A DNA stretch of 44,206 nucleotides from a virus (taxonomy: Duplodnaviria > Caudoviricetes). A program made the translations under genes and the position numbers. The notes beneath the pieces were generated by a model that worked only from the letters and a program-made list of their open reading frames with translations, did no database searches and was not told where the DNA came from. This document shows, piece by piece, positions 23,703 to 41,601 of the stretch; within the stretch, counting starts at the first letter, position 1, and each line of letters opens with the position of its first letter. The stretch covers positions 1 to 44,206 of IMG/VR virus record IMGVR_UViG_3300017911_001503, one strand, 5' to 3'.

Positions 23703-23881
23703 CAAAAAGGCACGGGAGCTTCAGGCTGCTCCCAGGTCAGTTCGAGGACATTGTCTAGGCTCATGTAGACTTTGTCCGGGAGACCCTTGGGCACATCCAC
23801 GTCGGCCTGAGCCATGATCCGCAGCAGCGCCTCAAGGTTGATCTTGATCTGGACTTGGTTCTTCTTCTCGTAGTAGTTCAT
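23702..23881 (-). CDS. Hypothetical protein (59 aa, not in ORF track)
   Basis: MNYYEKKNQVQIKINLEALLRIM...; coupled at both ends to its neighbours. Confidence 0.7.
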   Translation of the reverse strand: MNYYEKKNQVQIKINLEALLRIMAQADVDVPKGLPDKVYMSLDNVLELTWEQPEAPVPF

Positions 23882-24195
23882 TGTCGTTTCTGGCGTCGGA
23901 TGAGTTTCTTGACGTTCGCGGACACGATGTCCTGCACATTGAAGTCGAGGGCGTTCAGGAGTGCAACATATCCCCAGAGAACGTCCCCAAGTTCGTCATG
24001 CAGCTTCTCAACGTCGTCGGGAGACAGACGGCCTCCTGCGCGGCGAGAAGCCTTCTGGAAGATCTCGGTGACCTCCCCTAGCTCCCCCTGAAGCTCCAGT
24101 AGGGCTCCGAGGGCTGCGTTGTCACTAGGCGTCGCGTGAACGAACCCGCGGTTCTTGCAGGTGCTCTCGACGAACTCTACATAGGCGTCTAGCAT
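23878..24195 (-). CDS. mazG: MazG-like nucleotide pyrophosphohydrolase
   Basis: GELGEVTE...DELGDVLW..NVKKL (ExxE...ExxD metal motif). Confidence 0.88.
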   Translation of the reverse strand: MLDAYVEFVESTCKNRGFVHATPSDNAALGALLELQGELGEVTEIFQKASRRAGGRLSPDDVEKLHDELGDVLWGYVALLNALDFNVQDIVSANVKKLIRRQKRQ

Positions 24196-25052
24196 GGGAT
24201 CTTGCTGATGAGGTCAGTGAGGGCTAGTTCGGCTTGCTGGGGAACGACTGCGTTGCCAAGGGCGCGAAGGCGGTCCACCCGATTGGAAAGCCCATCAGGG
24301 ACTCCACAAATATTGGATTGAGTCGCAGGCCAGAGGTGTTCGGGAACATCGCTCCAGTCGTCCGCGGGGCCGCGAGGCCCAATCTCCCCTTGGTCGGCTC
24401 CTTGAGGCTGGGATCCGTCCCGTCCTTGTGATCCCTTGCTGTCGGTGTCGGCCAGTTCTTCGCTGCTCCCGGCAGCTTCAGCACGACCTTGTTGTGATCG
24501 CCATTGCTGTACGCATACGCGCTCCCCGTTGAGTCGTTCACTGTCGCGGTAGGCCAAGATGAAGAGCCGGTTCCTGCGGTGGGGAAGTCCGGCTTGGGCT
24601 GCGCTGTATACACCCCACTCTGCATTGAACCCCAGTTGGGCAACTTCTTCGAGGACTTCGTGGAGCCCTTTGCTGACGTGTCCTTGGACGTTTTCGAGAA
24701 CAAGAGCCCTTGGCTGGATTTCTCGGATGATTCGCGCAACGTCAGGCCAGAGGTGCCTTGGGTCGTCTGCGCCCCTGCGTTTGCCTGCGGAGCTGAAAGG
24801 CTGACAGGGGTATCCCGCAGCGACGAGATCCACTGCTCCACGCCATGCTGTGCCGTCGAAAGACTTGAGATCCGTCCACACAGGTGCTGGATCCAGAGAT
24901 CCTTCTTCCATGCGCGTTGCCAAGATTTCGATGCACGCTGCTTCCCTCTCCACGTAACAGACTGTTCGAGAAGCTGGAAACACTCGTCGGATCCCAAGGT
25001 CCAACCCGCCGATTCCGGCGCAGAGCGACAAGACGCGGGGATTACTGCCCAC
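24189..25052 (-). CDS. DNA (cytosine-5) methyltransferase, alpha chain
   Basis: Motifs I (LCAGIGG), IV (GYPCQPFS), VI (ENV), VIII (RRNRLF), X (LGNAVVP); probable GTG start at 25052 after GAGGAGG. Confidence 0.92.
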   Translation of the reverse strand: MGSNPRVLSLCAGIGGLDLGIRRVFPASRTVCYVEREAACIEILATRMEEGSLDPAPVWTDLKSFDGTAWRGAVDLVAAGYPCQPFSSAGKRRGADDPRHLWPDVARIIREIQPRALVLENVQGHVSKGLHEVLEEVAQLGFNAEWGVYSAAQAGLPHRRNRLFILAYRDSERLNGERVCVQQWRSQQGRAEAAGSSEELADTDSKGSQGRDGSQPQGADQGEIGPRGPADDWSDVPEHLWPATQSNICGVPDGLSNRVDRLRALGNAVVPQQAELALTDLISKIPC

Positions 25053-25054
25053 AC
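24224..25054 (-). CDS. Nested out-of-frame ORF: putative methyltransferase beta chain carrying motif IX
   Basis: 276-aa stop-free alternative frame with WPT repeats and LNPIFVESLMGFPIGWT (motif IX-like). Confidence 0.7.
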   Translation of the reverse strand: MWAVIPASCRSAPESAGWTLGSDECFQLLEQSVTWRGKQRASKSWQRAWKKDLWIQHLCGRISSLSTAQHGVEQWISSLRDTPVSLSAPQANAGAQTTQGTSGLTLRESSEKSSQGLLFSKTSKDTSAKGSTKSSKKLPNWGSMQSGVYTAQPKPDFPTAGTGSSSWPTATVNDSTGSAYAYSNGDHNKVVLKLPGAAKNWPTPTARDHKDGTDPSLKEPTKGRLGLAAPRTTGAMFPNTSGLRLNPIFVESLMGFPIGWTAFAPLATQSFPSKPN

Positions 25055-25170
25055 TCTTCACCCTCCTCAACCTCCTCTTCCGGGAACCCCTCGCGGTCCC
25101 ACTGGAGCACCTGCTGAAGGTCCTTCATGATCTGGTCGATCATCTTGTCGACTTCGTCCTTGTCACTCAT
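25042..25170 (-). CDS. Small acidic protein (42 aa)
   Basis: MSDKDEVDKMIDQIMKDLQQ...EEEVEEGEECGQ; GGAGG upstream. Confidence 0.65.
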   Translation of the reverse strand: MSDKDEVDKMIDQIMKDLQQVLQWDREGFPEEEVEEGEECGQ

Positions 25171-29028: not shown

Positions 29029-29138
29029 TCACCATATGACCACTGACGCCCACGGAATCCCATACCGCCGCGAAGCGGGAGAATGGAGAGGAGTGCCCGC
29101 CAGTGTCTACATATGTACCCCTCCTCCTCCATTCCCCC

Positions 29139-32100
29139 ATGTCTAGACGATACGACTTCCAGGACATCCTGAGGCGGTTCCAGCAGACGCAAGACCAGCG
29201 GTTCCGTGAACTCAGCGATGCTGTTGCGCGGCGCATTCTGGAGCTTCTCGGCGGCACCACTGTCCCCGACGACCCGCCCGATCCTCCCAGCGGCCTCACG
29301 GCCACCGACGACCAAGAGTTCCAGATCACCCTCGACTGGAACCCTGTAGCCACGGCGACGGGCTACAACGTGTACCGCTCGCCGGTCACGGAAAACAACT
29401 TCGCCCTGATCGGCAGCACCCCGGTCTCCGATTACGTTGACACGGGTCTGCCTGCGGACACCAGCTTCGACTACTACGTCACGGCCTACAACGGCGACGG
29501 CGAGTCGGACCCCAGCAGCACCGAGACGGGCACCAGCATTGACGGGAGCGCCCCCAGCCTCCCCGATACGCCTGCCAACTTCCGCACGACTTCCAACGAG
29601 AACCAAGTGGTGCTCGCGTGGGACGCCTTCACGGGTGGCACGGTGGCCTGCCGCATCGAGCGGTCGGTCGACCAACTGAACTGGACGGTGGTGGCGAACA
29701 CCTCGACCCTGACCTTCACGGACACCAACGTCTCCGTAGGCCAGACGTTCTACTACCGAGCCTACGGGGTCAACGCCACGGGTGTCACCTCGCCCGCCAC
29801 TGCGACCCTGACGGTCACTGTGGTCGACGGGGACACCACTGCGCCCCCTGTGCCTGTGCTGCTGTCGGGCATCCCGGCGAACCAGATGATCTCTGTGACT
29901 TGGGAAGGCGTCGTTGCGTCTGACCTTGCGGGCTACGAGATCGGGTGGGGCACCAGTTCGGGGACCTACACGAACACCTCCGATCTCATCACGGGTACGC
30001 AGGGGAACATCACGGGCCTGACGAACGGCACGCGGTACTACTTCGCTGTGCGTTCCGTGGACACGTCGCTGAACGAGAACAAGAGCGCGTGGTCTAACGA
30101 ACAGAGCGACATCGCTATTGACACGGCGGACCCCGGCACGACCCCGGACCCGCCCACGGCGCCCACGGGGCTGACCTCAACGTCTCCTGAGGTCAACCAG
30201 ATCCGAGTGCGGTTTACCCCTGGGCAGTCTTCGTTCCTCCGGCGGCACCGCCTGTACGCTCGGGTGAAGCCTGGGCAGACGATCCAAGGCAACCCCGTTG
30301 ACGGAACGTGGAGCCAGATCGACCAAGAGCTACAGCCTGCTACGGAGCTTGGCAAGGACGTTACTATCTTCCAAGGTAGTCTTGGCTACGAACTCAGCCC
30401 GGTGACGTGGCAGTTCTACGTCACGGCGGTGGACACCTACAACCAAGAGTCCGCACCCTCCGAGATCATCGAAGACATTGTCGACGGTGAAGACTGGGCC
30501 TTCGGTCCCGGCGGTGGCCCGATCGGCGGGCAGAACATCAACGGTGACACGGGCCTTGGGGCCAACCACCGTGCTCCGGGCTTCACGTTCGACTTCGCCA
30601 TTGACGTGTCGGACACGACGCAGTACGCGGGCGATGCAGTCGAGAGGGCCGCGGCGATCTTCAACAACCGGCGCAACCTCGACCCCAGCAACCCTGACTT
30701 CATCCAACTGTCGACGGACGACACGGCGCACATCGCCATCCTCCTGCCGACGGAGACGGTGAACAAGCGGCTGCACATCAACACTGGCGACACCAGCACG
30801 GGCGGCGAGCAAGCTCGTGAAGCTGCCAACTTCGACTTCGGCGGAGACCCTGGGTTCGAGTCGCAGATCGCCCTGCACTTCATCGGGCCTTGGGCGCAAG
30901 GCACCGACACGTTCCTTGAAGCACAGACCCGTATGCGCGACAACCCCGGCAGCGCCACACTGGGCTACAAGCGCACGTTCAAGGACTCAGACAACAAGTC
31001 TAAGTTCAACGACAACACGGGTGCAGACATCATCGTTGGCGACATCACGCGGCAGAACGCGGAAGGTGTCTTCTACTTCTGGAACTGGGACGTTGAAGTC
31101 AGCAGTAAGGACGGCATCCGTCTTGGCTCTGACGGCGACCGCGGCTCCGACTTCAAGTCGCACAAGTTCGACGTAGTCTTCAACCTGTGCAAGATCCACC
31201 AAGACGCGATCCTGCCCAAGGTGGAAGCCATCGGCCAGCGGGGTGTCACCGCGCGGTACATCCGCCCCTCGCTCATCGGTTGCTTCATCGACCTGCCCTG
31301 GCAGTCTGGTGCCGCCGTGCAGGCCCTCTCGCCTATGCGGGGCAGCTTCGCCGTGACGAACACTCGAGTCGCGCGGGCGGGCGGTGCAGCCTTCCAGATG
31401 TACACCCGTTCGACCTTCGACTCTGGGCTTCCCGCGGGCACCGACCCCGGCAGTCTCACGTTCACCGGAGTGCGTCACTGGGACGACTGGCCCACGATTA
31501 ACGACGGCATTGGCCGTGCCTCGGAAGCTGGTACGTTCTTCTTTGACCTCGGTGGCGTTGAACAGAACGTAACGCTTGCCGACTGTCACGTCATCGAGAC
31601 GAAGTCCGCGAACTTCCGCAGGCTTGCCGACTGGCCCCCTGGCGATCCGTATGACTGGCGTGTGTACACGACCTTTGTCCGGCAGACCAACTCGGCTCTG
31701 CGTATGCAGTACCTCGGCATCGAGCGCCCACTGGCGAGCGGCTACCGCACGGGCGCGATCAGCATGAGCAACTGCCTGTTCTACAGCAAGGTCCCGATCC
31801 GACCTGTTGTGGACATTGAGCACGCGAGCAGTATCACGCTGACCTCTGTCGGTGCGTTCACCGATGAACAGGCCGAGGTTCTGAGCTACGACAGCGCGGG
31901 CGTCTCGACTTCGCTGGGTGACTCCTCGCTGACTGGCTACCGTTACGGCAACAGCACCCCTTACAAGCCTGGGGGCGCCCCGTTCACCATCGGCGCTATG
32001 TCGGCTACCGGGCTCAACACCAACACCATGCGTAACACGCTGGCGAGTGCGTACTCGCTGACGGCGGCGGAAGTGGCTGTGGCGAACGCGGACATTGAGT

Positions 32101-33920
32101 TTGTGCCGGACACGGTCGATCACTTCGAGGTTACGGAGGATCACTCGTTCAACAGCTTCACGCCGCCGCACCAGTTGTTCCTACAGCCTGCGGGCCTCAA
32201 CCCCCCGGAGCCGCCGCCGACGCTGGAGCTTATCGATGCTATCGACATGTACGATCGCGGCCTGACGATGCCTCAGGCGAAGCTGGAGGCGATCCCGGCG
32301 CTGGTCGCATCGCGTTCGCCCCGCGCCGACGCCACCGGCAACGTCAACGTGCGCCGCTGGGCGTATCGTGGCCCCGGTACGGGCTACGCAGCCACGGGCG
32401 ACTGGCAGATCCACTTCGGCAACAACCTGAGCGGTCCTAGCACTAACCCCTACGTTCGCTTCGCGGATAACTTCTGCGTCATGCACCTTGAGGATGTGGA
32501 CCTGCGATTCCCCGGTTCTCAAAAGTGCTTTAGCTCCGACTACGAGACGAACAAGTACATCAGCAGCACCTGGGAGACCTCCACGGCCAACCAGAACCCT
32601 GCTGTGCCTAACGGGGAGGAAGATGTCTTCCCCCGTGAGGCGTCCGACAAGTGGGGAGCGCCGAACCCTGTGAAGGAGTACGTCACGAACTGCTACTTCG
32701 GGGACCACGGGGACCGTAGACGCTACGAAAGGCCGGAGTACTCAGGCAACGCCGGACTCAACTCGGATGTCAAGTGGGCTATCCGCCACAACGGGCTGGT
32801 CGACGTTACGTTCGAGAACTGCGACTGGCAGTACGTCCACCAAGAGCACGCCTGCTACTTCAACAGCATGGGTGATGCCGAGTGGCGTAACTGCACGTTC
32901 CGTGATATCGGATCGCAGGGCCTTCAGGTAGTCAACCGATCCGACAGCTGGGGGAAGAAGATCCACGACCCGAACGACGTGGAGAACCCTGAGTACTTCA
33001 ACGACGAGACGCGAGGCGGCAACCGCATCCTGCGGAACTGCCACTTCGCCGACGTGGGCAACTGGTCGAACCAGTCCCAGAACAAGTCCAGCGTCATCAA
33101 CTTCTACTCAGCGGGCTACCCGGACTCCCCGGCAGAGCTTGTGGCGATGGTGGACTGCTCGATCGTTACGGGGCTGACCTTCGCTGAATCCTCTGCGGAG
33201 CGGGCGGCTGCGGGCGACCCGGACACCTCGCCCTACTTCTTGCGGGATTCGCAAGGCGGTGACAAGCAGTCGTCGTCGCTGTTCGCCCTCATCCTAGAGG
33301 ACCAAGGCAGCCAAGCGGGCCAGCAACTGGACCCGACCCACGCAGAAAGCGGATCGGGGTCGGCTATCTCGGCCAAGCTGTTTAGGACCCCGTTCGCCAC
33401 TGCTGCCGCCGCTCGTGCCGACAACGCAGCAACGATGCACCAGATGGTGTACTTCAAGAACTGCTACTTCCACCAGCAGGACGCGGCGAACCCGATGTTC
33501 CGCTTCGACTCGTGCCACACGATCATCTTCGAGAACTGCGTGTTCATTCACGACGAGGTCTACGGCACGACGCAGAGAGCTTTCAGCATCGACTCCGGCC
33601 TGTCCGCCTACTGCGAGCCGGGTGCGTGGAACTACATGGCAGACGGTGACCTGCACGGCACCCACAACCTAATCTTCCGCAACTGCCGTGCGGAGATGCG
33701 GGATGTTACTGAAGGCCGCGTGGTCACTTCGACAAGCCCCATGAGCATTCGCTGGTCGCACGTCGAGACGGACGACATCTCCTTCATCGGGTTCGGAAAC
33801 TCGGTAAACCAAGAGTTGCACTTCAAGGGGCTTCAAGGGGGTCGGACGGAACCGATCCTAGACTACCAAGGCCCGATCGATCCCAACAGGCCCGGCTACA
33901 TCGCGCCGCCTGTGGTCTAA
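29139..33920 (+). CDS. Giant protein: about 4 fibronectin type III domains plus beta-helix regions (adhesin/depolymerase-like)
   Basis: PPSGLTAT..ITLDWNPV..ATGYNVYRS..YYVTAYN..GES FN3 repeats; C-terminal FENC/FRNC beta-helix turns; 1593 aa from ATG 29139. Confidence 0.85.
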   Translation: MSRRYDFQDILRRFQQTQDQRFRELSDAVARRILELLGGTTVPDDPPDPPSGLTATDDQEFQITLDWNPVATATGYNVYRSPVTENNFALIGSTPVSDYVDTGLPADTSFDYYVTAYNGDGESDPSSTETGTSIDGSAPSLPDTPANFRTTSNENQVVLAWDAFTGGTVACRIERSVDQLNWTVVANTSTLTFTDTNVSVGQTFYYRAYGVNATGVTSPATATLTVTVVDGDTTAPPVPVLLSGIPANQMISVTWEGVVASDLAGYEIGWGTSSGTYTNTSDLITGTQGNITGLTNGTRYYFAVRSVDTSLNENKSAWSNEQSDIAIDTADPGTTPDPPTAPTGLTSTSPEVNQIRVRFTPGQSSFLRRHRLYARVKPGQTIQGNPVDGTWSQIDQELQPATELGKDVTIFQGSLGYELSPVTWQFYVTAVDTYNQESAPSEIIEDIVDGEDWAFGPGGGPIGGQNINGDTGLGANHRAPGFTFDFAIDVSDTTQYAGDAVERAAAIFNNRRNLDPSNPDFIQLSTDDTAHIAILLPTETVNKRLHINTGDTSTGGEQAREAANFDFGGDPGFESQIALHFIGPWAQGTDTFLEAQTRMRDNPGSATLGYKRTFKDSDNKSKFNDNTGADIIVGDITRQNAEGVFYFWNWDVEVSSKDGIRLGSDGDRGSDFKSHKFDVVFNLCKIHQDAILPKVEAIGQRGVTARYIRPSLIGCFIDLPWQSGAAVQALSPMRGSFAVTNTRVARAGGAAFQMYTRSTFDSGLPAGTDPGSLTFTGVRHWDDWPTINDGIGRASEAGTFFFDLGGVEQNVTLADCHVIETKSANFRRLADWPPGDPYDWRVYTTFVRQTNSALRMQYLGIERPLASGYRTGAISMSNCLFYSKVPIRPVVDIEHASSITLTSVGAFTDEQAEVLSYDSAGVSTSLGDSSLTGYRYGNSTPYKPGGAPFTIGAMSATGLNTNTMRNTLASAYSLTAAEVAVANADIEFVPDTVDHFEVTEDHSFNSFTPPHQLFLQPAGLNPPEPPPTLELIDAIDMYDRGLTMPQAKLEAIPALVASRSPRADATGNVNVRRWAYRGPGTGYAATGDWQIHFGNNLSGPSTNPYVRFADNFCVMHLEDVDLRFPGSQKCFSSDYETNKYISSTWETSTANQNPAVPNGEEDVFPREASDKWGAPNPVKEYVTNCYFGDHGDRRRYERPEYSGNAGLNSDVKWAIRHNGLVDVTFENCDWQYVHQEHACYFNSMGDAEWRNCTFRDIGSQGLQVVNRSDSWGKKIHDPNDVENPEYFNDETRGGNRILRNCHFADVGNWSNQSQNKSSVINFYSAGYPDSPAELVAMVDCSIVTGLTFAESSAERAAAGDPDTSPYFLRDSQGGDKQSSSLFALILEDQGSQAGQQLDPTHAESGSGSAISAKLFRTPFATAAAARADNAATMHQMVYFKNCYFHQQDAANPMFRFDSCHTIIFENCVFIHDEVYGTTQRAFSIDSGLSAYCEPGAWNYMADGDLHGTHNLIFRNCRAEMRDVTEGRVVTSTSPMSIRWSHVETDDISFIGFGNSVNQELHFKGLQGGRTEPILDYQGPIDPNRPGYIAPPVV

Positions 33921-37283: not shown

Positions 37284-37360
37284 TTGCTAGGCGGTAGCGT
37301 GGCCGTCAGCACGCCGAGAGGGTGGGAGGCCCAACACACACAAACACACACAGCACCGAA

Positions 37361-37801
37361 ATGAAGCTAGTACACGTCGAACTAAAAGAGGCCAACGCTT
37401 TCGTGGACAAACTGCACCGCCACTGTAAGCCGATAACAGGTCACCGCTTTTCGATTGGAGTGGAGAAGGACGGAGTCCTTGTAGGCGTTGCGATCGTAGG
37501 CCGACCCGTCGCAAGAAAGACCTGCCAGCGCACAATTGTCGAGGTGTCTCGCCTATGCACCGACGGCACTAAGAACGCTTGCAGCTTTCTCTACGGCGCA
37601 GCCGCGCGTGCCGCGAAGGCATTGGGCTACGTCAAAATCCAGACGTTCATTCTGGAGGAAGAGCCGGGCACCTCCTTGAGGGCCGCTGGCTGGTCTTACC
37701 TAAGCGACACGCCCGGCAAGGGTTGGTCAGTCAATAGCCGACCGAGACCCAACGATCCGTCACCCCGAGGTATGAAACAGCGTTGGGGCAAAACACTTTG
37801 A
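37361..37801 (+). CDS. XF1762-family protein (Mom/GNAT-like, putative DNA modification)
   Basis: ANAFVDKLHRH, GVAIVGRPVAR, EVSRLCTDGTKNACSFLYG, E.GTSLRAAGW; ATG at 37361. Confidence 0.8.
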   Translation: MKLVHVELKEANAFVDKLHRHCKPITGHRFSIGVEKDGVLVGVAIVGRPVARKTCQRTIVEVSRLCTDGTKNACSFLYGAAARAAKALGYVKIQTFILEEEPGTSLRAAGWSYLSDTPGKGWSVNSRPRPNDPSPRGMKQRWGKTL

Positions 37802-39441
37802 CATTCACCGCACAAAGGCTCCCCTGCCCCAAGTGTGGTAGCTCCCGCTCTCTTGCCATCGACGAAGAGACTGGCTGGGGCTACTGCCACCGCAACGAGT
37901 GCAGGGTGAAGCCGGACCCGACATACGACTTCAGCCCCAAGGAGATTAGCTTGGCCGAACTCATCCCGCAGGAGCAGATCACGTTTGGAGACCTTACAAG
38001 CCGAGGCATCTCCATCCTGACCTGCCGCAAGTACCGCTACGGCGTGGCGACCTACAACGGCCAGAGGTGTCAGGTGGCGCAGTTCACCGACGCAGCCGGG
38101 GTGGTGCGAGCGCAGAAGCTTCGACTGCCGGACAAGAGGTTTGTCTGGCTGAACGGGGAGGGCGCAGAGGAGGTCAAGGGCCTCTTCGGGAAGACGCTGT
38201 TCCACGACGGCGAGAAGAGCAAAGCCAACGGGCTCAAGTCGCGCATCGTCATCACCGAGGGCGAGCTTGACGCCTTGGCGTGCGCGGAGGCGCTCGGTAA
38301 CTGGCCCGTAGTGTCTGTGCCTGACGGCGCGGCGTCGGCGCAGCGGTGGCTCAAGAAGGACCTTGAGTTCCTTGAGACCTTCGAGGAGATTGTGCTGGCC
38401 TTTGACGGCGACGAGGCGGGACAGGATGCGACGCAGAAGGCTCTTGACCTGCTGTCACCAGGGAAGGCCAAGATCGTCCGCTGGCCTGCGGGCTGCAAGG
38501 ATGCCTGCGACGTGCTCGGTGAGCGCAGTGGACAGGAGCTACGCAAGATCCTGTGGGACGCCTCGGCCTACGCGCCTGAGTGGGTCGTCGACGGCGACAA
38601 CATCCTCGACGAGATCTTTGAGGGCGGACTAGAGCCGGGATTCCCGTGGCCTTGGAAGGGTGTCGACCACGCCTTTGAGGGCATTCGACCCAAGCAGATG
38701 ACTCTGATCGCTGCGGGCACCTCGTCGGGCAAGTCGCTGTTCTGCCGCCACCTTGCGCTGCACTGCGCTGAAGCAGGCAAGCGGGTGGGCTACATCGCGC
38801 TTGAGGAGAGCCCGCGCCAGTCGGCGCTGGGGGTCTACGGCGTCGCCCTGAAGCGGCACCTGCAACTAGAGCGGGACCTGCCCGAGGACGAGATCCGCGA
38901 GGTCCACGAGCGTCTCGGGCACAACCTTGTGTTCACGAAGCACTGGGGGTCTGCCGAGGACGACTCGCTGGTCAAAAAGATCCGCTACTGCGTCAAGGCT
39001 CTCGACTGCCCCGTCGTGTTCCTCGATCACATCTCAATTGCTATTTCTGGACTTGACGCGCAAGACGAGCGAAAGGCCATTGACAAGATCATGACTGATC
39101 TTCGGACTCTGGTCGAGGAGACTGGCGTCCACCTGTTTATCGTCAGCCACCTTCGTCGACCGAAGGACGGTAGCCACGAAGAGGGCATGGCGATTTCCAC
39201 TGGGCACCTCCGGGGCTCTCACAGCCTTGGGCAGATCCCCGACAACATTCTCGCTTTGGAGCGCAACCAGCAGGCCGAGGACATGGATTCCCGAAACACC
39301 ACTAAAGTCAGAGTCTTGAAGAACCGAGATATGGGGAGACTCGGTATTGTCGAGCACCTAAAGTTCGACCCGACTAACCACTGCCTTGAGGTAACTCCGA
39401 TCGACACTACACCCGAAGTTTCTTACGAAGAGTTCGACTGA
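37798..39441 (+). CDS. DNA primase/helicase (gp4-like)
   Basis: CPKCGSS zinc finger, TOPRIM ITEGELDAL and FDGDEAG, GTSSGKS Walker A, LDHISI, LRGS; probable TTG start overlapping the upstream stop. Confidence 0.97.
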   Translation: MTFTAQRLPCPKCGSSRSLAIDEETGWGYCHRNECRVKPDPTYDFSPKEISLAELIPQEQITFGDLTSRGISILTCRKYRYGVATYNGQRCQVAQFTDAAGVVRAQKLRLPDKRFVWLNGEGAEEVKGLFGKTLFHDGEKSKANGLKSRIVITEGELDALACAEALGNWPVVSVPDGAASAQRWLKKDLEFLETFEEIVLAFDGDEAGQDATQKALDLLSPGKAKIVRWPAGCKDACDVLGERSGQELRKILWDASAYAPEWVVDGDNILDEIFEGGLEPGFPWPWKGVDHAFEGIRPKQMTLIAAGTSSGKSLFCRHLALHCAEAGKRVGYIALEESPRQSALGVYGVALKRHLQLERDLPEDEIREVHERLGHNLVFTKHWGSAEDDSLVKKIRYCVKALDCPVVFLDHISIAISGLDAQDERKAIDKIMTDLRTLVEETGVHLFIVSHLRRPKDGSHEEGMAISTGHLRGSHSLGQIPDNILALERNQQAEDMDSRNTTKVRVLKNRDMGRLGIVEHLKFDPTNHCLEVTPIDTTPEVSYEEFD

Positions 39442-39848
39442 TGAAAACTAGAATCACCTGCAAAGCCTACTTCGACGCAGCGCACAGGATGTCGCCTGCA
39501 CCTGAAGAGGGCTACGATCGTTGGCACGGACACAGATACGAGGTTGAAGTCACCGCCAACACGTATGTCTGGAGCCATCTCCCGCTCGACGATTTCAGGA
39601 AAGGGGTCGCAGAAGTGTTGTCTGCCTATGACCACCGAACACTGACGTGGATTGGAGACGCTGAAGGGTGCAAGATAAACGAAGCTGTTGTGTTTCCTTC
39701 ACAGCCGACAATGGAGACGATCGCGCGGGCCATTTACGCTCAGATGCACTCGTGGATCGAAGAGCACTCAAAGGCAAAGTTGTACTCGGTGCGCGTGTCA
39801 AGTCAGCCGGACGCATATGCGGTAGTGTTCAATGATTGTGATGCCTAG
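39441..39848 (+). CDS. queD: 6-carboxy-tetrahydropterin synthase (QueD)
   Basis: FDAAH, HGHRYEVEV, DHRTL, PTMETIA motifs. Confidence 0.88.
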   Translation: MKTRITCKAYFDAAHRMSPAPEEGYDRWHGHRYEVEVTANTYVWSHLPLDDFRKGVAEVLSAYDHRTLTWIGDAEGCKINEAVVFPSQPTMETIARAIYAQMHSWIEEHSKAKLYSVRVSSQPDAYAVVFNDCDA

Positions 39849-40488
39849 CAACAGCGGTCGCTGGAATGTGCATTACTGGCAGGGCAAGTATGGAGGTTTG
39901 GGGCATTTGTACTCGCCTGGGGGCGCTAGAGGTCCGTTTGAGCATCTCCCATATGCACTGGACAACGGCGCCTATGGCGCCATGAAAAACAACCGCCCGT
40001 TTGACGAAGAGGGTTTTGAGCGGCACGTTGTGTGGGCTTCTGAGAAGGACAAGCAGCCTTTGTGGTTGGCTGTTCCAGACGTTGTAGGAGACCGAGAAGC
40101 CACTGTGCGCGAGTGGCGGCTTCGTGCCCCGAAGCTGCGAGATCGCTTTGGTTGGAATCTTGCTCTTTGTGTGCAGGATGGCATGAGGCCCGAAGAAGTC
40201 GTTGAACTCGGGCCGGACGTTGTTTTCGTTGGCGGGTCTACTGAATGGAAGTGGTCGACCGTGGCTGAATGGTGCGCGGTTTTCCCCAGAGTGCATGTTG
40301 GACGCTGCAACTCACCCCGTAGACTCTACGAATGCGCGGAGCTTGGCGTAGAGTCAGTTGATGGCACTGGCTGGTTCCGAGGCAACCAAAAGCAATACGA
40401 AGGACTCCATGATTTCATCAAGCAACAATCTCAAGGGCGGCGACCCTCGATACCGCGTCAAAGAGATCTTCCCTTCACTACAGGGTGA
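39832..40488 (+). CDS. TGT-fold protein; candidate DNA deazaguanine transglycosylase (divergent DpdA-like)
   Basis: ALDNGAY (cf. TGT DSGG[FY]), PDVVGD, VQDG, FVGG, VHVG, ESVDG order matches a TGT barrel; embedded between queD and queE. Confidence 0.65.
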   Translation: MIVMPSNSGRWNVHYWQGKYGGLGHLYSPGGARGPFEHLPYALDNGAYGAMKNNRPFDEEGFERHVVWASEKDKQPLWLAVPDVVGDREATVREWRLRAPKLRDRFGWNLALCVQDGMRPEEVVELGPDVVFVGGSTEWKWSTVAEWCAVFPRVHVGRCNSPRRLYECAELGVESVDGTGWFRGNQKQYEGLHDFIKQQSQGRRPSIPRQRDLPFTTG

Positions 40489-41080
40489 AGGCTCGAAGGT
40501 GGGCACACCGTGTCTGTTTGTCAGGTTTGCTGGGTGCAACCTGTGGAATGGCAAGGAATCCGGGAGGTCCGACGCCGTCTGCAAATACTGCGACACTGAC
40601 TTCTTGGGCGGGGACACGTTTACGCACAACGAGCTTGTCACAGAAGTCGAGCGTGCGTGGAATGCGGCCTTGGCACCGCCACTGATTGTGCTGACTGGAG
40701 GCGAGCCGCTACTTCAGGTGACAGACAAGATGGTTGAAGAACTGTCATACTTGGCTGAAGTCGCTATTGAGACGAATGGCACCGTACCAACTCCTACGGC
40801 TGACTGCCACATCGTGTGTTCTCCCAAGCCCGGAGCGCCTTTGCACCGCAAGGTAGCCGTTGACGAGTACAAAGTTGTCTACCCACAAGAGGGGCTACAA
40901 GGTCCCGATGAGCTACGCGAGTTCGTTCTAAGTTTGCCTGGACGTTTCCTAAAGGCTCCGGTTTACATCCAGCCTAACGCAAACGTGGCAAACGCTGAGC
41001 GGGCCGTCCTCAGGTTTCTGAAAACGAACGTCAACTGTCGAATGTCTCTTCAAACACACAAAATCCTGAATCTTCGATGA
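40409..41080 (+). CDS. queE: 7-carboxy-7-deazaguanine synthase (QueE, radical SAM)
   Basis: EIFPSLQGEG, FVRFAGCNL, CX14CX2C cluster motif, LTGGEPLLQ, IETNG, SLQTHK. Confidence 0.95.
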   Translation: MISSSNNLKGGDPRYRVKEIFPSLQGEGSKVGTPCLFVRFAGCNLWNGKESGRSDAVCKYCDTDFLGGDTFTHNELVTEVERAWNAALAPPLIVLTGGEPLLQVTDKMVEELSYLAEVAIETNGTVPTPTADCHIVCSPKPGAPLHRKVAVDEYKVVYPQEGLQGPDELREFVLSLPGRFLKAPVYIQPNANVANAERAVLRFLKTNVNCRMSLQTHKILNLR

Positions 41081-41601
41081 AAACGCTACTTCTCAGTGGA
41101 GGTCGTGAATCCTCGTATTTAGCCGCGACTCTTGGTGACAAACTAGATCGAGCGGTTCATTTCTATTATGGCCAGCCGCATATGAACGAGCACGCTTACG
41201 CGAATAAGATCGCTCGGCGTTTCGGCATCCGGCTGCATCACCACGACTTGCCTAACCTAAAGATGTCTCGTGAGAGGTTTGTGGTGCCTCACCGAAATCT
41301 GCTGATGCTTACAGCGGCGGCAGCTTTGGGCGCCACAGAAATCTGGCTTGGCGCGAACGCAACGGACTACGAGCTCTTTCCCGATTGCCGCCGCCCGTAC
41401 CTAGATCGCGCCGAGACTATGTTGGATGTGAAAATCCACACACCGCTGATCTACATGAAAAAGTCAGAGATTTCCGAAAGGCTGGAAGGTTTGGGCGTAC
41501 CTCTTGCCGATACATGGAGTTGTTACTTCCCTGTGTCTCACGGGGATCTCCACTATGAACCCTGCGGCGACTGCGCCGCTTGCCTTTCTTTCAACGACTA
41601 G
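41077..41601 (+). CDS. queC: 7-cyano-7-deazaguanine synthase (QueC), compact
   Basis: LLSGGRES PP-loop, VPHRN, FPDCR, TWSCY...PCGDCAAC zinc site. Confidence 0.9.
   Translation: MKTLLLSGGRESSYLAATLGDKLDRAVHFYYGQPHMNEHAYANKIARRFGIRLHHHDLPNLKMSRERFVVPHRNLLMLTAAAALGATEIWLGANATDYELFPDCRRPYLDRAETMLDVKIHTPLIYMKKSEISERLEGLGVPLADTWSCYFPVSHGDLHYEPCGDCAACLSFND

Follow-up and report, generated by a model that had tools for sequence, protein, structure and literature searches.

A T7-like marine phage gene whose two overlapping conserved frames probably encode the two chains of a C5-cytosine DNA methyltransferase

M.EcoHK31I of E. coli is an alpha/beta C5-methyltransferase that acts on YGGCCR, and the accessible parts of its descriptions place the TRD in alpha (PMC2836561, PMC3404938). 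M.AquI also consists of two chains, one with motifs I-VIII and the other with the distal variable region and motifs IX-X, as stated in the accessible text of PMC3404938. Among phages, the Bacillus phages SPR, phi3T, H2 and rho11 are described, in the part of PMC8936443 available to us, as encoding multispecific C5-methyltransferases with tandem TRDs.

The locus presented here lies in a phage genome of 44,206 bases, referred to below as the window, meaning the whole stretch of DNA that was analysed. As in M.EcoHK31I, which was compared through the accessible parts of its published description, alpha has motifs I-VIII together with X and beta, encoded in another frame of the same DNA, has motif IX. 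As in the SPR, phi3T, H2 and rho11 enzymes, to the extent that the accessible text describes them, it is an orphan phage C5-methyltransferase whose tandem variable modules lie between motif VIII and motif IX. From sequence comparisons and structure prediction we consider it likely that this accessory phage gene holds two conserved frames one base apart, probably translated separately from adjacent starts, and that alpha (cofactor binding and catalysis) and beta (motif IX and the likely target-recognition modules) fold into one C5-cytosine DNA methyltransferase. A description of a phage family of this design was not found in the literature searched, subscription journals and REBASE lying outside that search.

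Two reading frames in a phage methyltransferase gene

The window, a complete virus record, has direct terminal repeats and comes from a T7-like marine phage; it contains genes for a T7-like RNA polymerase, primase-helicase, DNA polymerase A, capsid, portal and terminase. Two sequencing runs that cover most of it are seawater metagenomes from a single study, and the DNA may derive from one of them. The methyltransferase locus is found in a minus-strand block composed of a RuvC-like resolvase, two small acidic genes, the methyltransferase and a MazG-like gene (23878..24195, minus strand), the ATG of which overlaps the end of alpha. Elsewhere in the genome, QueD, QueE and QueC-like genes at 39441-41601 (plus strand), with a 218-aa gene of phrog_15826 between QueD and QueE, point to a possible deazaguanine DNA modification in a T7-like phage; FolE and DpdA had no match among the window ORFs scanned. 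A Mom-like protein of the XF1762 family (37322-37801, plus strand), flanked by SSB and primase-helicase, is a candidate DNA-modifying enzyme. A 1605-aa protein with fibronectin type III domains is encoded directly ahead of the RNA polymerase (29103-33920, plus strand), a position that is unusual for a T7-like early region.

Alpha is a C5-cytosine methyltransferase of 287 aa (24189..25052, minus strand) in which motifs I (LCAGIGG), IV (GYPCQ), VI (ENV) and VIII (HRRNR) are followed by a linker and motif X (LGNAV), and it matches PF00145 (E 8e-39) and phrog_363. The features of the PF00145 family, namely motifs I, IV (PC), VI (ENV), VIII (RxR) and X and a Rossmann-like catalytic domain, are all found in it. 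The catalytic residue in motif IV, Cys83 (24804..24806, minus strand), is invariant (87/87), and the motif X core GNAV (24246..24257, minus strand) lies just past beta's motif IX on the DNA. The structural model of alpha (pLDDT 77) shows a C5-methyltransferase catalytic domain nearest to M.HaeIII and M.HhaI, with residues 194-230 at low confidence. A search for a motif IX-like string in alpha's own frame returned none.

Relative to alpha, beta is read in the +1 frame (24224-25054, minus strand); it has 276 aa, no Pfam match and a match to phrog_1008. Both phrog_363 and phrog_1008 are PHROG families labelled DNA methyltransferase, a pairing to which no function is attached. The C-terminus of beta, LNPIFVESLMGFPIGWT, is preceded by two WPT units and includes motif IX (L245-T261; 24272..24322, minus strand), which is predicted to pack on motif X of alpha. 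Motif IX was found solely in beta and was called by position, conservation and the predicted IX-X contacts; the motif numbering, and motif IX as the name for LMGFPIGW, are assigned by consensus and position, without a profile hit. An alignment profile of beta matched nothing among PDB sequences or in Pfam. When alpha was recoded synonymously (20,000 draws), the +1 frame was open with a probability of 0.014; the +1 stop rate of the genome gives 0.0008, and the longest +1 open run among 28 other genes of this genome has 200 codons. These values, together with the conservation of both frames presented below, led us to reject beta as a chance ORF.

Both frames begin in an overlapped GTGTG (25050..25054, minus strand), beta at 25054 and alpha at GTG 25052, with a Shine-Dalgarno-like GAGGAGG (25062..25068, minus strand) located 7 and 9 nt ahead of the two starts. 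An acidic upstream gene of 42 aa (25042..25170, minus strand) ends across these starts, its stop lying past both, and its last codons contain the shared SD, which falls within Glu codons. Alternative starts of alpha are GTG 25061 and TTG 25070, from which the longest ORF runs; as a second GAGGAGG (25071..25077, minus strand) stands 9 nt before GTG 25061, alpha has a possible ribosome-binding site of its own. In L001, a related locus from a different phage, GGAGG is kept at the same 7-nt spacing and the upstream GTG is absent.

An earlier note on this DNA, made from the sequence alone, had already reported a main frame with motifs I, IV, VI, VIII and X and without IX, a second frame open for 276 aa that ends in a motif IX-like string after WPT repeats, paired starts 7 and 9 nt past one GAGGAGG and, in the third frame, the end of a 42-aa gene. 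The motif strings and the PF00145 match bear out the first of these and openness beyond chance the second; the starts and the upstream gene are read directly in the sequence, and the pairing of the starts recurs in relatives. The 103 non-redundant loci comprise 60 whose start pair is close to motif I, 40 in which beta starts 46-394 nt inside alpha and 3 that are unpaired. The start pair stands at -2 (NTGTG) or +4 (ATGNATG), the two closest offsets possible, in 49 of 62 loci against 10.1 expected from codon shuffling with stops ignored (third-frame control, 3; a parallel count gave 47/60). Moreover, the N-terminus of beta has an M-x-W-L-Y-x-P-like form that tracks an alpha start located 15 to 75 nt before motif I, and a W-L-Y-x-P-like start was seen in 53 of 60 loci with a pattern derived from the same sequences. 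The paired starts of alpha and beta are thus conserved, and the 40 loci with internal starts show that the enzyme does not need them. That one ribosome-binding site sets the alpha/beta stoichiometry, as the earlier note suggested, is only plausible, given the second GAGGAGG with its alpha GTG, the placing of the shared SD in Glu codons and these 40 loci.

Conservation of both frames and position of the constraint

Relatives were collected through each chain separately. With alpha alone, the best 80 were picked out of 462 loci from viruses and the best 80 out of 400 from bacterial genomes, and the +1 frame contained motif IX in 79/80 and 77/80 of them, respectively. Of the four loci that missed it, L045 is cut by the contig end, L193 has an assembly gap, L223 is truncated and L234 carries an inserted transposase. 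Among the best 80 of 488 loci picked by beta, 77 overlapped alpha by pattern, one was a pattern miss and two were cut by the contig end. An open beta frame spanned motifs I-VIII in 44 of the 45 loci selected by alpha and thinned to less than 90% identity, against 1.0 expected; L020, which does have motif IX, was left out of this count as a pattern mis-pick. The alpha linker was open in 99 of 101 loci of a set thinned to less than 90% identity, against 9.1 expected, and the third (+2) frame was open in 0/45 loci. All these locus counts lack phylogenetic independence, since many of the loci are related alphaproteobacterial prophages and their occurrences are therefore not independent events. The exceptions among alpha-selected loci were linker stops in L022, L075 and L195 and a beta stop in L005. 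Variants checked in three of four sequencing runs, among those listed (40 of 92), introduced no stop in either frame, which is a weak test. Interruption of beta by stops in homologues, which the earlier note had set against its own reading, is not seen as a rule, and the methyltransferase gene appears to be a case of real dual coding.

From 168 loci, 72 disjoint pairs were formed to compare the substitution pattern. Substitutions fell mainly at the third codon position of alpha in motifs I, IV, VIII and X (54-64%), and mainly at the third position of beta in the modules and motif IX (61% and 55%, respectively), with an amino acid identity in the latter regions of 0.86-0.88 for beta vs 0.70-0.71 for alpha. 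Between the window and L001, changes at alpha positions 1/2/3 numbered 6/6/17 in motifs I-VIII and 24/5/4 in the modules. The variable region is where C5-methyltransferases read DNA, according to the accessible text of PMC3404938 and PMC2790894, and in alpha this region is poorly conserved, with top-residue frequencies of 0.16-0.38. Since changes across the modules fall on the third codon position of beta, it is beta and not alpha that is constrained in the variable region. The earlier reading overlooked this constraint, as well as the swappability of the WPT units.

Annotation of these genes varies in the frame that it follows. Two Synechococcus phages with matching hits, PP438429.1 (L244) and OM868082.1, carry opposite-frame annotations, one of them having beta as a hypothetical protein and the other a cytosine methyltransferase. 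In phage Ssp-JY39 the annotation covers just one of the two chains, beta, as a hypothetical protein, and in GenBank gp56 of phage Shelly carries the note 'g55 internal gene', so that there the nested ORF is annotated. The -2 start pair of the window recurs in Synechococcus phage Yong-M2-251 and in Ssp-JY39, both of them cultured. Searched by term, two P. larvae phage papers did not discuss the nested gene, and no Paenibacillus-phage or E. coli out-of-frame-gene paper on a two-frame methyltransferase family was found. Two loci depart from the common arrangement: in L067 (3733-4266) motifs IX and X are separated by an insertion through which alpha's frame stays open and whose +1 frame has an ORF, HNH-like by eye, resembling the out-of-frame HNH insertions described in the accessible part of PMC11855218; and in L148 (2627-3560) alpha stops after motif VIII, with motif X downstream in alpha's frame beyond the stop, which represents either a broken gene or a three-piece form.

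Variable modules in a mobile cassette

Between motif VIII of alpha and motif IX, beta carries 0-7 units (234 loci) formed by W-P-T-P-x-A-x-D, a Gly/Arg/Ser/Lys-rich core and L-x-x-A-V, with a median internal length of 28 aa and a counting pattern that over-counts some. Only 4 of the 234 loci are without a module by the pattern used, and the number of modules follows the length of the alpha linker (rho 0.87). Among close relatives whose core is near-identical, the number of modules is one, two or three, with at least five module types in differing combinations, and distinct module types reappear in distant loci. Natural variants with one, two and three modules are P0042, P0002 and P0008, respectively. 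The window has two: the swappable module 1 (W167-N200; 24455..24556, minus strand), and the terminal module 2 (WPTPTARDHK..., W201-R244; 24323..24454, minus strand), with residues 198-209 in the predicted interface. In a related contig, from run X3, one module (module 1) is missing in frame, with a net loss of 102 nt. The frame of alpha may cross the module region as a free linker, which would allow modules to be gained, lost and swapped in multiples of three.

Profiles of the modules and of beta did not match two phi3T methyltransferases, and a profile of the beta of L118, a locus with a different split of the enzyme, did not match PDB sequences. WPTPT can be likened by eye to the PTIK and PTLT strings (PT-x-T) of the phi3T enzymes. 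No profile match to known TRDs was obtained, so that the case for target recognition is made by where the modules lie, their variability and composition and this by-eye likeness; on these grounds the modules probably have a role in DNA recognition. That each module corresponds to one DNA site is a more tentative suggestion. With the same reserve it can be imagined that these genes form a widespread phage family of dual-coded multispecific methyltransferases, in which each WPTP module would read a different site, module swaps under the free alpha linker would retune protection against host restriction, and overlapped starts at one ribosome-binding site would give matched amounts of the two chains; we find this extended picture somewhat doubtful.

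L001 shares with the window only the cassette 25066-24195 (24195..25066, minus strand), at about 90% nucleotide identity, its flanks having no match. In L243 and in contigs of runs X4 and X5, the acidic gene is joined to MazG and the methyltransferase is absent. Sharing restricted to the cassette, together with its absence from these contigs, indicates a mobile accessory cassette. The earlier note had called the enzyme an orphan with no cognate restriction enzyme, in agreement with our scans: no restriction-enzyme family was found among the window ORFs scanned (part of 170 ORFs) with Pfam, which detects such enzymes poorly, nor among 133 neighbouring ORFs (up to 4 per locus, of at least 140 aa, in 40 loci). 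In L095 (73-579), a gene for a TET-associated glycosyltransferase lies about 2.4 kb from the two-frame methyltransferase, which hints at cytosine hypermodification in that phage.

The genome of the window avoids many 6-bp palindromes, such as GACGTC (0 vs 38 expected) and CTGCAG (0 vs 32), with both strands counted, and CCWGG occurs at 0.36 of expectation. The avoidance of palindromes fits host restriction pressure as a motive, and together with that of CCWGG it suggests a host rich in restriction enzymes. In the k-mer avoidance analysis of the genome no single methylation target stands out.

Predicted complex, alternatives and relation to known enzymes

The predicted alpha-beta complex had a score of 0.85 (median of three runs), and the best of three controls reached 0.01. 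Of 157 solved complexes, 116 attain the mark applied to this score, as do 2 of 215 mismatched pairs; the mark is only roughly applicable here, own alignments having been used. The runs agreed in at least 67% of contacts, with a partner pLDDT of at least 59. The best predicted contacts are those of beta motif IX on alpha motif X and of beta 140-144 with the alpha strand 143-148, and further contacts to alpha involve beta 1-9 and beta 198-209. A multimer prediction of both products was among the checks named in the earlier note, and its outcome favours a two-chain enzyme; however, the halves of a split enzyme may pass by their likeness to solved monomeric C5-methyltransferases, in which IX and X touch, so that the score shows likeness and not binding. 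In the model that we favour, either GTG would be chosen by ribosomes that load at the shared SD or re-initiate once they have read the upstream gene, beta, largely unfolded alone, would wrap alpha, and the resulting enzyme would methylate phage DNA against host restriction.

The same DNA could in principle yield a single chain by programmed frameshifting, in which motifs I-VIII would be read in alpha, ribosomes would slip by +1 to read the modules and motif IX, and would return to alpha's frame for motif X. Monomeric enzymes indeed have their parts in the order seen here on the DNA (I-VIII, modules, IX, X), and selection changes frame at those same borders. Nevertheless, such a mechanism needs neither the openness of beta over motifs I-VIII (44/45 loci vs 1.0 expected) nor an open alpha linker (99/101 vs 9.1), nor a conserved beta start and N-terminus, and yet all of these are found; a scan of alpha for the X XXY YYZ heptamer found none. 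As both frames are open far beyond chance, double frameshifting was rejected and we regard it as highly improbable. Even more remote is the idea that beta is not a subunit at all, and that it acts independently or as a regulator, or is a shadow ORF that alpha's codon use keeps open. Beta alone models poorly (pLDDT 57, pTM 0.21), and its N-terminal half is largely Ser/Thr-rich, as expected of a +1 shadow of alpha. On the other hand, beta has the motif missing from alpha, at the canonical place, selection acts in its frame, its binding to alpha is predicted, and in L118, whose alpha stops after motif VIII, motif X is fused to the same beta.

Another alternative would make the phage enzyme exactly what is described for M.EcoHK31I, with specificity in alpha, beta providing motif IX and structural support, and the WPT units being neutral or structural repeats. 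The accessible description of M.EcoHK31I (PMC3404938) favours it, as do the lack of a statistical match between the modules and known TRDs and the 4 of 234 loci that are module-less by the pattern used. However, the variable region of alpha is poorly conserved (0.16-0.38), has low model confidence and changes at non-synonymous positions where the frame of beta is conserved, and distinct module types recur across distant loci, which makes this alternative unlikely. The two-chain reading after M.EcoHK31I given in the earlier note therefore holds in part: conservation, frame-specific selection and the predicted complex agree with it, and the placing of the constrained variable region in beta, not alpha, departs from it.

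If two chains are indeed made, two-chain enzymes would stand behind hundreds of genes of phages and prophages that carry the annotation of one methyltransferase or one hypothetical protein, and the specificity of these enzymes would need to be sought in the frame that annotation usually discards. With an overlap of about 830 nt, both products being halves of one enzyme and selection changing frame along it, the gene would be a clean natural model for the origin of overlapping genes. If the modules are recognition units, they would offer a natural set of parts with which to reprogram C5 methylation and would give a readout of the restriction races between phage and host.

The phage enzyme differs from each of the described systems. 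The target sites of the SPR, phi3T, H2 and rho11 enzymes are shown to be several, and the modules have no profile match to the phi3T TRDs; moreover, these enzymes are single chains, the phi3T genes having 18-60 stops in the other frames, in contrast to the two-frame phage gene. Unlike in M.AquI, alpha holds motif X and the overlap of the frames is almost complete. The exception is L118 (2291-3471), in which alpha ends after motif VIII and beta has the modules, IX and X, an M.AquI-like split with partial overlap; it is the one locus of 80 selected by beta (best 80 of 488) with IX and X together in the small chain, and could be an intermediate from an M.AquI-like split. The two-chain design of M.EcoHK31I has reportedly been known since 1995, and the basic design being known from one E. 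coli enzyme for so long limits the surprise. As far as the accessible description of that enzyme goes, the phage frames differ from it in overlapping over about 96% of alpha with paired starts, in that the constrained frame of the variable region is, by an indirect test, that of beta, where M.EcoHK31I has its TRD in alpha, and in a cassette in which no restriction enzyme was seen, where M.EcoHK31I has a restriction partner; the phage beta also has an array of variable modules. What is new relative to M.EcoHK31I is thus the overlap of nearly the whole gene, the lack of a restriction partner and the 0-7 swappable WPTP modules in the target-recognition position.
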